Below, piece by piece: positions 59,328-64,000 of a stretch of DNA of 64,000 nt. Source of the stretch: a virus. The stretch lies in the IMG/VR virus record IMGVR_UViG_3300037628_000643, positions 1-64,000 of that record. One strand, given 5' to 3'. A program made the position numbers and the translations under genes. The notes under the pieces were generated by a model that was not told the DNA's origin, searched no databases, and saw only the letters and a list, made by a program, of their open reading frames with translations. Numbering within the stretch: position 1 is the stretch's first letter; the number at the start of each line of letters is the position of its first letter.

Positions 59328-60956
59328 TCAATACTCTCTTGTCAACACCTTATGCCCCATGTAATTCCCTCCGCTCGTTATCTTTACTCCAGTGTAATCA
59401 ACCGTCAAAGATGTAGCTTTCTTATACCCATGAGCTTTAAGTTCTGCTATCGCTGTCAATAACGACTTAGGGCAATGATCAATAAGATCATCCGATGATA
59501 CTTCAGCCCACCATCTGCACGCATCTGATCTTCTATGAGGATTTCCTTCAAAATGAAAGTACTCATGAATCTTCTCTATGCCACAATGATAAGTGACACG
59601 TAGAGAGTTCTTTTTGCTCACTCTTGAATGGTGATTATCAACGGTGACGTTGAGCACCTTGATATCTTTTATCGGTGATGCGCCTTCAATAATATCATCT
59701 GTTGATGCTTCAACACCGTGATTTGGCGCTATATCTCCTCCGAATTTAGTAAAGCAAAACGGACACTCGGATGCGAGGTATTTTACTAGCTTGTCACAAC
59801 ATCCACACTTCTTAAATGGCGTTCTCTTTGCTTGCTTTTGAGCCTCTTTTGTTGGAGGTGGGCCCAATTTTGTAATATCTCTGAACCTAGAAATATTTTC
59901 TCCATAATCAAGCACCATGGCGTTTATTTTTGAAAAATGAGTACGAAGAAGTCTTCCAATTATCTGAAGCCATAAAGCCGATGACTGAGTTGCGCGAAGC
60001 ACAATCCCACAGTCAATTGACTTCACATCGAAGCCAGTTGTTAAAGTATTAATACTTATCAACCATCTTAATGAAAAATCTTCGAAGCGCTCTATAAATC
60101 CAGTTCTATCATCTAGCTCCGTATCACCTGTAATTACTTCTGAAATCTCACCCCTCTCAGCAAGAGCTGCCTTAATCTTGTATGCATGCTCAACTCCACA
60201 AGCAAAAACAAGAATGCTTTTTCGGTCAGAAGCATACTTCATTGCATCATCAAGTGCAGCTTCAATGAGGTAATCATCGTCCATTACCTGCTGCATTGCT
60301 TCGTCATTAAACTCTCCATTAGCGTTCAGCTTTATAGATGACGTATTTGCAGATAAACTAACCTCTGGAGTAATTAATGGACAAAGGAAGCCTTCATCAA
60401 ATAAAGTTGTCATTGATATTTCGTAAACAATATCATCAACAAGCCAACTCCCTTCCAATGTTCCGCTTTCCATCTTCCAAGGACTAGCGCTTAAAGTTAC
60501 AATTCGAACATGAGGATTTTTTTTCTTTAAATTCTCGAAAAATATGTAATACATCGAATCTTTTTTTAAGGAAACCCTATGGGCCTCATCAACATAAACC
60601 ACTGATACATTTTCGAATAAACTTGCTTTCCTGTATACCGATTGTATGCCAGCGAAGACAATATCTCCTGTGTGGTCTTTTGATTTATATGACGCAGAAA
60701 ATACTGTAGTCTTAGCGCTTGGCCACTGTTCTAGCATAGCTAAATTGTTTTGTAAAATTAATTTGGTAATATCTGTCAAGACAATCTGCTGAAATCCAGA
60801 AGATATGTCATGTATCCTTTTTGCAAGCTCAGCTATAATTAAGCTCTTGCCACTTCCTGTCGGAGCTTTAATTAACGGGTTTTTATCCGTGGAAAATAGA
60901 TAGTCAATCGTAGCGTCAACTGCTTCTTGTTGATAATAATGTGGCTTGTATGCCAT
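59328..60956 (-). CDS. SF2 DEAH helicase (RadD/YejH-like) with Zn ribbon
   Basis: YQQEAV, PTGSGKS, VDEAH, SAS, LTTGFD, QIIGRLLR, CxxC pairs. Confidence 0.92.
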   Translation of the reverse strand: MAYKPHYYQQEAVDATIDYLFSTDKNPLIKAPTGSGKSLIIAELAKRIHDISSGFQQIVLTDITKLILQNNLAMLEQWPSAKTTVFSASYKSKDHTGDIVFAGIQSVYRKASLFENVSVVYVDEAHRVSLKKDSMYYIFFENLKKKNPHVRIVTLSASPWKMESGTLEGSWLVDDIVYEISMTTLFDEGFLCPLITPEVSLSANTSSIKLNANGEFNDEAMQQVMDDDYLIEAALDDAMKYASDRKSILVFACGVEHAYKIKAALAERGEISEVITGDTELDDRTGFIERFEDFSLRWLISINTLTTGFDVKSIDCGIVLRATQSSALWLQIIGRLLRTHFSKINAMVLDYGENISRFRDITKLGPPPTKEAQKQAKRTPFKKCGCCDKLVKYLASECPFCFTKFGGDIAPNHGVEASTDDIIEGASPIKDIKVLNVTVDNHHSRVSKKNSLRVTYHCGIEKIHEYFHFEGNPHRRSDACRWWAEVSSDDLIDHCPKSLLTAIAELKAHGYKKATSLTVDYTGVKITSGGNYMGHKVLTREY

Positions 60957-62776: not shown

Positions 62777-63073
62777 CTAAGATTTTGAAAGCCTACCCAT
62801 TAAAGCTTCAGATATATTTACAAGTATTCTTCCTTTTGCATGAATAACCTTTACTCTTTGAGTCGTTTCAATTAAGCCCATTCTAAATGCAAGAATACCA
62901 AAAAGCTCATCAGCGAAACCTGAGGACATACTCATTACGTTAGAAAAGTCTAACCCAACAGTGCTTAAATCAGATATCTGCAAATCCACCTGATCTCTGT
63001 ATTTTATGGCTAGAACTCTTGTGCATGGGTCTGTTTCTGTGATAACAATTATGTTGTGAATTGTAGGATTCAT
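62777..63073 (-). CDS. Stand-alone STAS-like (DUF4325-like) protein
   Basis: LDFSNVMSMSSGFADELFGIL; ATGA-coupled to the upstream HNH gene. Confidence 0.75.
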   Translation of the reverse strand: MNPTIHNIIVITETDPCTRVLAIKYRDQVDLQISDLSTVGLDFSNVMSMSSGFADELFGILAFRMGLIETTQRVKVIHAKGRILVNISEALMGRLSKS

Positions 63074-63507
63074 ACAGTTTCTCCATTTAGTCCTTCTCCG
63101 TTTTTGGAGTGCCACTCTATATGGTGTTTGCTACATAACCATCGCACAGAAAGTGGATCTGAATAGTCATCATGGTGGGCATTAGTTCTATGGGTATTTC
63201 CGCAAATTTCACATGGTTTTTTCTCTAACTTACCGTCTCTCACTGCATTACCCACTATTATTTGAGCATTTCTTTTTAATGGATTATTTTTAATCCATTT
63301 TTGCTTGCACTTAGCGCCAGACGCCTTTCCTTCTTTTGTCTTGCTGTATTCCTTCCTAGCAACAACCCTTTTCGGATTCATTGCCCTTGACTTGTCATAT
63401 GTACTCTGGCACTCTTTGCATTTTGGAGAAAGACCATCTGGACTAGCTGATCTCTTGCCAAACATTAATGATTCTTTTTCTTTGTTGCATGTCCTGCATA
63501 ACTTCAT
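63070..63507 (-). CDS. HNH-like Zn-binding protein
   Basis: CxxC…PCEICG…AHHDDY-x-x-PL-x-VRWLC-x-x-HH. Confidence 0.75.
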   Translation of the reverse strand: MKLCRTCNKEKESLMFGKRSASPDGLSPKCKECQSTYDKSRAMNPKRVVARKEYSKTKEGKASGAKCKQKWIKNNPLKRNAQIIVGNAVRDGKLEKKPCEICGNTHRTNAHHDDYSDPLSVRWLCSKHHIEWHSKNGEGLNGETV

Positions 63508-63520
63508 ATATTCTCCTAGA

Positions 63521-63546
63521 AAAAAAGGCCTCACTTAGAGGCCTTT
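63521..63546 (-). terminator. Intrinsic terminator after SSB gene
   Basis: Minus strand AAAGGCCTC-TAAGT-GAGGCCTTT plus T-run. Confidence 0.85.
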
Positions 63547-63607
63547 ATATTACCCATCAGAAGGGAATTTCGTCCGAATCGAAATCATCAAAATCGTTAC
63601 CAGTTAG

Positions 63608-64000
63608 CTAACTTTTATTTTGAAACGGATTAGCGCCCTGTTGAGCAGGAGAATTCCCCACCGCACCTTGAGCAGGAGCTGCAGTACCACCAATCGCCTT
63701 GGGGTTTTTAACCTCGTTTTTGTCTTCGTAGCCTTGACTCTTAACTACCTTGACCGTACCGGAGATCATTTTGCTAAGCAGATTTTTTGGGTCTAGCATC
63801 GCTTTTGGATCTGTTACGCCACATGCGTTGCATAGACGTCCATATTCTGAGCGAGCAACCTTATTCTCTGTTCCGTCTTTTTTGACAAGGTAGTAGTTCA
63901 TCCAGATCTTGCGACCATTGTATTTTTCGCCTACAACGTCGAGTACAACCTCAACATAAATAGAACTTTCATTTCCCTGCTTCGACTCAGAGCTTGCAAC
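63608..64000 (-). CDS. DUF669-like ssDNA-binding protein, 5' end outside window; possible readthrough to 63557
   Basis: YNGRKIW…LCNACG…GYEDKNEVK…Ala/Gln-rich tail; lies upstream of Cas4-like nuclease and helicase. Confidence 0.75.
   Translation of the reverse strand, partial: VASSESKQGNESSIYVEVVLDVVGEKYNGRKIWMNYYLVKKDGTENKVARSEYGRLCNACGVTDPKAMLDPKNLLSKMISGTVKVVKSQGYEDKNEVKNPKAIGGTAAPAQGAVGNSPAQQGANPFQNKS

Follow-up and report, generated by a model that had tools for sequence, protein, structure and literature searches.

The gene for a DUF669-type phage SSB in record IMGVR_UViG_3300037628_000643 ends at a TAG codon, behind which sixteen further in-frame codons spell a complete tip of the bacterial SSB type, and shortly after them lies a gene for an HNH endonuclease whose family is found almost always directly behind such tips. 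We consider it rather probable that this stranded tail is a side product of the movement of homing endonucleases at the 3' ends of ssb genes and that, if it is translated at all, this happens through background readthrough. The preliminary description of this DNA had proposed two SSB isoforms arising by readthrough or with the help of a suppressor tRNA, for which we obtained no positive support (no such tRNA and no RNA structure), and it had overlooked the tip-associated HNH gene downstream, which offers a non-translational explanation.

The record is 104,021 nt long with 38% G+C, and the window, by which we mean the whole stretch of DNA analysed, comprises its first 64 kb (64,000 nt). A marine-sediment metagenome, probably the source of the record, was the only sequencing run containing the stretch, and no RNA runs containing it were listed. 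The features that the following sections refer to are these (window positions unless marked otherwise):

62777..63073, minus strand: 98-aa gene (PF14213), its ATG overlapping the HNH stop as ATGA
63070..63507, minus strand: HNH endonuclease gene, 145 aa (phrog_2340, E 4e-38)
63524..63546, minus strand: intrinsic-terminator-like hairpin and T-run, after the second stop
63549..63556, minus strand: imperfect inverted copy TGGGTAAT of the tip core ATTCCC, behind the TGA (compared by eye)
63557..63559, minus strand: TGA, the second stop, as read in the sequence
63560..63607, minus strand: sixteen in-frame codons, LTGNDFDDFDSDEIPF, that read as an SSB tip of the bacterial type and contain no start codon
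63602..63613, no strand: perfect 12-bp palindrome AGTTAGCTAACT (AGTTAG/CTAACT), centred on the boundary of stop and tail
63608..63610, minus strand: TAG stop of the SSB gene, as read in the sequence, at a position common with the relative P0003
63611..63631, minus strand: the family's own C-terminal motif N-P-F-Q-N-K-S, from family comparison
63611..64000 (genome 64105..63611), minus strand: DUF669-type phage SSB gene (P0001), from PF05037 and PHROG matches

The SSB gene and the codons behind its stop

The SSB gene starts with an ATG at genome position 64105, outside the window, and its product is 165 aa long, or 182 aa with readthrough. Its initial assignment as a DUF669-like phage SSB held, as PF05037 (DUF669) is matched at 30.1 bits against a gathering cut-off of 21 (E 6e-7), and the PHROG matches are phrog_2300 and phrog_378 (SSB), the alignment to the latter extending to the very end of the profile once the tail is included. 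The PF00436 OB-fold was absent from the protein in Pfam, where only DUF669 was found. The upstream neighbour of the gene encodes a Sak4-like AAA_24 ATPase (PF13479, E 3.5e-36; phrog_124, E 5e-40).

Re-reading the minus strand directly returned the letters first reported, namely the 3' end of the SSB gene (AAT CCG TTT CAA AAT AAA AGT TAG, ...NPFQNKS and stop), sixteen in-frame codons (63607-63560: CTA ACT GGT AAC GAT TTT GAT GAT TTC GAT TCG GAC GAA ATT CCC TTC) and a TGA; the perfect 12-bp palindrome at the stop (63602-63613) and the terminator behind the second stop (a hairpin and T-run at 63546-63524) are present as well. E. coli SSB ends in the C-terminal tip ...DFDDDIPF-COOH, and NDFDDFDSDEIPF in the window has the same acidic run and terminal I-P-F before a stop as such bacterial SSB C-termini, but differs from them in lying behind a stop codon and on a DUF669 fold, not PF00436. 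This acidic run and I-P-F would be C-terminal only if the TAG were read through.

The tail is complete: it holds 13 acidic or aromatic residues, is in frame and has no internal stop. No second [DE][DE]?[ILVM]PF-stop motif occurs in any of the six frames of the genome (104 kb). We take the hidden peptide, as judged by its sequence, to be a bona fide SSB-Ct-type tip. An open in-frame extension of at least 16 codons follows 57 of the 188 ORFs, so such a length is not rare, and it is the match to an SSB tip, rather than the open extension, that constitutes the non-random feature. A pattern search of IMG/VR for DFDSDEIPF gave zero matches. Synthesis of the tail peptide by separate initiation was ruled out, its 16 codons containing no ATG, GTG or TTG.

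The TAG codon is in regular use as a stop in this genome. It ends 26 of the 136 ORFs of at least 100 aa, and the coding density under table 11 is 86%, which agrees with the earlier statement that TAG is not globally recoded. A reassignment of TAG to an amino acid, either global or confined to late genes, as in some recoded phages, would be hinted at by one statistic, as TAG-ended ORFs of at least 50 aa have an extension of at least 16 codons in 18 of 33 cases versus 39 of 155 for those ended by TAA or TGA (p = 0.0015); this effect is gone, however, for ORFs of at least 120 aa, and several of the long extensions are the next gene, in the same frame and with its own start. Only two tRNAs, tRNA-Met(CAT) and tRNA-Arg(TCT), were found in the 104 kb, and none with a CUA anticodon in the whole genome, even with ARAGORN at relaxed thresholds, so the suppressor tRNA that the preliminary description had suggested looking for is not encoded. 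On coding density, TAG-ended long ORFs and tRNA content we rejected global recoding, and we give reassignment in either form next to no credence.

The surroundings of the stop are similarly ordinary. Its stop-CUA context had been described as leaky in some eukaryotic viruses, a rule that derives from eukaryotic release factors. A C follows 11 of the 33 TAG stops in this genome, making TAG-C a common context here. RNA structure behind the stop was not significant (fold z -1.67), with only the terminator standing out, and the region had no match among Rfam families.

These observations bear on the possibility that leaky UAG termination is under selection and yields a 182-aa isoform beside the bulk 165-aa form, the UAG probably being read as Gln via a near-cognate tRNA-Gln. 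The tip of the longer form would recruit or titrate host SSB partners, and the motif at the end of the shorter one would face the phage's Sak4-like protein. Such a device is favoured by the perfect tip that the extension spells, in frame and free of stops, and by the placement of the terminator after the second stop; weaker bacterial termination has also been reported, mainly for UGA, where position +4 is a C (PMC5289835). Readthrough of UAG in bacteria is usually low, though, and below that of UGA (PMC5289835), and the phage encodes no suppressor tRNA, has no stimulatory structure that we could find, and uses TAG-C as a common stop context; we regard selected readthrough as unlikely, and return to it below.

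The C-termini of DUF669 proteins

Four relatives of the SSB were found among 5.8 billion clustered proteins. The closest, P0003, which stems from an independent data source (Logan), is 79% identical, is 165 aa long and ends in GANPFANKG at the same aligned position; other close relatives end there in NVFAK (P0004) or NPFG (P0005 and P0006). The preliminary description had suggested aligning homologs to see whether both the stop and the extension are conserved: the stop position is kept in the 79%-identical relative, which argues against a one-off error, and a far-C-terminal DFDD..IPF is present in none of these closest relatives. No 182-aa version of the SSB was found among the 5.8 billion clustered proteins. 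Protein and alignment queries of viral, metagenome and genome contig collections found no SSB relatives. In GenBank phages, blastn and tblastn searches with the region retrieved nothing closer than distant DUF669 matches of 30-32% identity.

A HMMER search of 1.84 billion representatives returned 417 relatives at E <=0.001, the best 150 of which were examined. The C-terminus of 103 of these best 150 DUF669 representatives (~69%) consists of P-x?-[WF] and 0-5 further residues, as in KRPWEK, PPWKR and NPFAKK, with basic residues often following the aromatic one, and 15 of the same 150 have bacterial-type acidic D-D-[ILV]-P-F ends. Both motifs occur within one ORF in P0015, P0044, P0140 and P0123, where the acidic tip follows the aromatic motif at a distance of 10-25 residues. 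By this comparison, the NPFQNKS of the window belongs to the majority C-terminal type of DUF669 proteins, and since ~69% of the representatives end in the proline-aromatic motif and the stop of P0003 falls on the same codon, the TAG would seem to be the family's usual stop.

The stop could instead be an artefact of sequencing or assembly, or a private nonsense mutation that arose very recently in a gene of 182 codons, an explanation that could draw on the location of the site within a palindrome and on the contig being a single metagenome assembly. We find it very improbable, given that the independently obtained P0003 agrees exactly in length and in where it ends, that no 182-aa version exists among the 5.8 billion clustered proteins, and that the end fits the family-wide C-terminal motif.

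As a separate observation, P0004, the 57% relative, carries an internal DTDDDIPFN and then 20 more residues ending in GRNVFAK; its acidic tip thus precedes the family's own end, which is the reverse of the order in the window.

The proline-aromatic motif, which differs from the acidic tip of bacterial SSBs, is a candidate docking motif specific to DUF669 proteins. The SSB of HK620 needs its six C-terminal residues to bind and stimulate Sak4 (PMC5928155), and in the 'Healer' system the C-terminal region of the DUF669 protein Gp63, for which ssDNA binding has been demonstrated, increases repair efficiency/recombination (PMC13687109). DDDIPF ends on prophage DUF669 proteins and toxicity of a full-length DUF669 SSB have been reported as well (PMC13687109). 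The HK620 Sak4-SSB pair and the Gp63 (DUF669)/Gp64 (AAA) pair of Healer (Pseudomonas phages) are the same combination of an AAA_24 Sak4-like protein and an SSB as in the window, but the window SSB has a non-acidic NPFQNKS end, for which docking to the Sak4-like protein is a weak computational hint. When the last 45 residues of the 165-aa SSB were co-folded with the Sak4-like protein, the score was 0.37, against 0.05 for the best control. In the benchmark, 51 of 78 solved complexes and 2 of 108 mismatched pairs came up to that mark, but scores <=0.60 were given to only 5 of those 78 and to all 4 passing mismatches (of 180). The runs agreed in at least 37% of contacts, with a partner pLDDT of at least 40. 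This is weak support; the NPFQNKS end probably docks the neighbouring Sak4-like ATPase, and the short SSB form may be competent. The proline-aromatic motif found on most DUF669 SSBs is a testable candidate docking site for the Sak4-type recombinases used in phage genome editing.

The HNH family and the tips upstream of it

The HNH gene starts 52 nt downstream of the stranded tail, and its family, with the invariant columns CxxC, CExCG, AHH and HH-EWH, has homologs in 531 phage records. In GenBank, the nearest two homologs (55% identity) are found immediately after the ssb genes of two unrelated Vibrio phages. Among 80 IMG/VR loci with homologs of 36-57% identity, a canonical tip was encoded upstream in 71 and a variant acidic-aromatic one in 5, and two of the remaining four loci come without upstream DNA; the tip ends a long ORF and lies a median of 63 nt (range 4-193) from the HNH start. 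Seven of the eight GenBank loci likewise have a canonical tip, the eighth (L090) having a variant acidic end. The proteins that carry these tips are of several unrelated kinds, including the PF00436 type and unclassified types, and in four IMG/VR loci the upstream protein is a DUF669 protein (clearly so in L063 and L030, weakly in L046 and L017). Because the HNH gene is almost always found directly behind it, whatever the SSB upstream, the short tip-coding sequence is the probable homing site of this family and the HNH protein probably a free-standing homing endonuclease, a homing activity that we infer from position.

The nearest HNH sampled is only 64% identical to that of the window, so a recent donor is not known. 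No HNH homolog was found on a 2576-nt contig such as that of P0003, which may end before the HNH gene, and no HNH paralog that would define the ends of a cassette was found in the genome. The 98-aa PF14213 gene that overlaps the HNH gene may travel with it; homologs of the former were found nowhere among 5.8 billion proteins.

In the 100 nt ahead of the HNH start, many HNH loci have partial second copies of the tip core behind the stop of the resident tip, 13-18 nt further on (for example EEIPF-stop-CEIPF, DIPF-stop-FDIPF, IPFN-stop-VPF and IPFR-stop-IPL-stop), often together with an inverted one (ATACCATTT TAA AATGGTAT). L011, L012 and L017 differ in their ssb genes but have the same second copy, TGATTTGACATTCCTTTT, behind them, which indicates that the copy travels with the HNH gene. 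Second copies were in frame in 18 cases and out of frame in 21 (p = 0.07), and with no significant in-frame bias they appear not to be translated in general; those that are clearly untranslated keep only the 9-12-nt core. The inverted copy behind the TGA in the window has counterparts, compared by eye, after the stop of the tip in L078, L063, L021 and L058. In a MAFFT alignment the window tail falls in register with the resident tips of the other loci and not with their second copies. The core of the window's own motif, AAT CCG TTT (AATCCGTTT, 63631-63623), is 1 base away from the tip-coding core at the HNH loci.

Many of the SSBs at L006-L085 end in IPF and one further residue (N, R, K or S), so that the Phe is not C-terminal.

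A comparable relic lies elsewhere in the same genome. At genome positions 75012-76432, a methyltransferase gene and an overlapping HNH ORF are followed by an open second methyltransferase 3' end, ending in LNRKFIGIEKFEKEFNIAEKRIKESK and a stop, which abuts the clamp gene. This untranslated gene end looks intact and has no start codon of its own. This relic and the window tail are both open, intact-looking gene ends that adjoin an HNH gene and have no start of their own; they differ in that the methyltransferase relic lies after the HNH ORF and duplicates an end still found on the active gene, whereas the window tail lies before the HNH gene and in frame.

Origin of the stranded tail

A stop before the tip was found at only 2 of the ~88 tip-plus-HNH loci examined. 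The second of these is in Vibrio phage 252E42.2 (MW824390, L005:2376-2423), where a canonical SSB tip, just upstream of an HNH gene of the same family as the window's, is split as DFDDD-RS-TAG-DIPF-TAA. At the split tip, 97 GenBank records are identical or nearly identical to 252E42.2, and Vibrio phage 1.205.O (MG592575, L086), from another continent and with a linker that is ~9% diverged, is arranged in the same way. An 8-bp palindrome, GACCGGTC, lies within the 12 nt that interrupt the 252E42.2 tip. In the window, removing the central TAGCTA of the 12-bp palindrome would leave one uninterrupted ORF with both motifs; perfect 12-bp palindromes number 24 in the 104,021 nt, or 2.3e-4 per position. 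The palindrome at the boundary of stop and tail may be a joint or repair scar, and, as a post-hoc reading, those of the window and of 252E42.2 resemble joints formed by repair where a nuclease has cut.

According to the explanation we favour, the TAG would be the real stop of the SSB, the 165-aa protein ending in ...NPFQNKS would be its abundant product, and the 48 nt behind the stop would be tip-coding DNA that belongs with the HNH gene. Duplicated, inverted or cut-off tip fragments would be left at the tip site by mobility and by the repair of breaks. The tail could have arisen in two ways: (a) a donor tip and HNH gene were joined right behind the resident stop, a route that we slightly favour, or (b) a resident far-C-terminal tip was severed by a small palindromic insertion. 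By either route the tail would not be a designed second isoform; its DNA would persist as a flank or recognition sequence of the HNH gene, or because the event is recent, and translation would occur only via background UAG readthrough.

We base this explanation on the native position of the stop, on HNH genes standing behind tips and on the untranslated extra tip copies there, on the methyltransferase relic beside another HNH gene in the same genome, and on the combination of a TAG that is a normal stop, no suppressor tRNA and no structure behind the codon. The palindromes at the boundary of stop and tail and in 252E42.2 are compatible with repair joints, and the short SSB form, as noted, may be competent. 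Several observations speak against it. The tail is complete, while the untranslated second copies elsewhere are short, and it registers with resident tips, the nearest sampled HNH being 64% identical. A neutral stretch of 48 nt would be expected to have decayed if the stop dates back to the divergence from P0003. Finally, given the ORFs in the family in which both motifs are fused, a readthrough product would have a natural architecture.

The same points can be turned in favour of selected readthrough, as the tail is intact although the stop position is common with a 79% relative, and single ORFs with both motifs do exist among DUF669 proteins. An in-frame TAG ahead of a tip's end is seen in a second lineage too, that of 252E42.2 and 1.205.O, and the toxicity reported for a full-length DUF669 SSB, together with the recombination gain from its C-terminus, would make dosing of the tip sensible (PMC13687109). 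On the other side, the stop precedes the tip at just those 2 of ~88 loci, and the HNH association provides a simpler origin. A more elaborate version, which we hold to be quite unlikely, would cast the amber stop as a dosing device: most SSB would serve the Sak4-like recombinase and a few tipped copies on the coated ssDNA would recruit or decoy host replication and repair proteins, with the HNH gene delivering the tips to unrelated SSB genes. A small tipped fraction would then avoid the toxicity of a fully tipped phage SSB, and the order of stop and tip would be an evolutionary intermediate on the way to fused SSBs with two motifs. Were it real, amber readthrough of this kind would be unusual for a dsDNA phage and would tune the recruitment of phage versus host partners.

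A phage precedent for an extended isoform is the A1 read-through protein of Qbeta, in which a UGA is read by tRNA-Trp and whose product is proven and essential. The window would likewise give a minor, C-terminally extended isoform in a bacterial virus, but its stop is a UAG and its extended isoform is putative.

For the mobility of the HNH gene, the nearest known systems are the T4-like free-standing homing endonucleases SegG and MobE, which are intergenic and sporadic and have mosaic or duplicated flanking gene ends (PMC2988022, PMC2790892), and co-conversion of the DNA flanking T4-like homing endonucleases has been described (summarised in PMC12724721). The HNH gene of the window is likewise a small nuclease gene between genes; it differs in its apparent target, a coding motif of 10-20 nt common to unrelated SSB genes, a commonality that would allow it to sit behind non-homologous genes. 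There are precedents for SSB tips on DUF669 proteins, for Sak4-SSB pairs and for homing endonucleases with mosaic flanks; the stranded in-frame tip and the tip-homing habit that we propose for this HNH family would be variants of which we found no description in the literature searched, where no paper tied the family to ssb ends. If the homing explanation is right, an HNH gene that lands on a tip-coding motif would be able to pass from one SSB gene to a non-homologous one and to remodel the ends with which their products bind partners, leaving tips duplicated, capped, split or stranded. It would also call for caution, as a perfect in-frame motif behind a stop could stem from the traffic of selfish elements and not from recoding.

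The palindrome at the stop is of the form AGT-N6-ACT, shared by 5 of the genome's 24 perfect 12-bp palindromes, at window positions 60011, 60045, 61990 and 63602 and at genome position 76835. Four of these five lie within 60.0-63.6 kb, and of the 26 AGTN6ACT words in the genome, the 5 that are perfect palindromes compare with ~0.4 expected.
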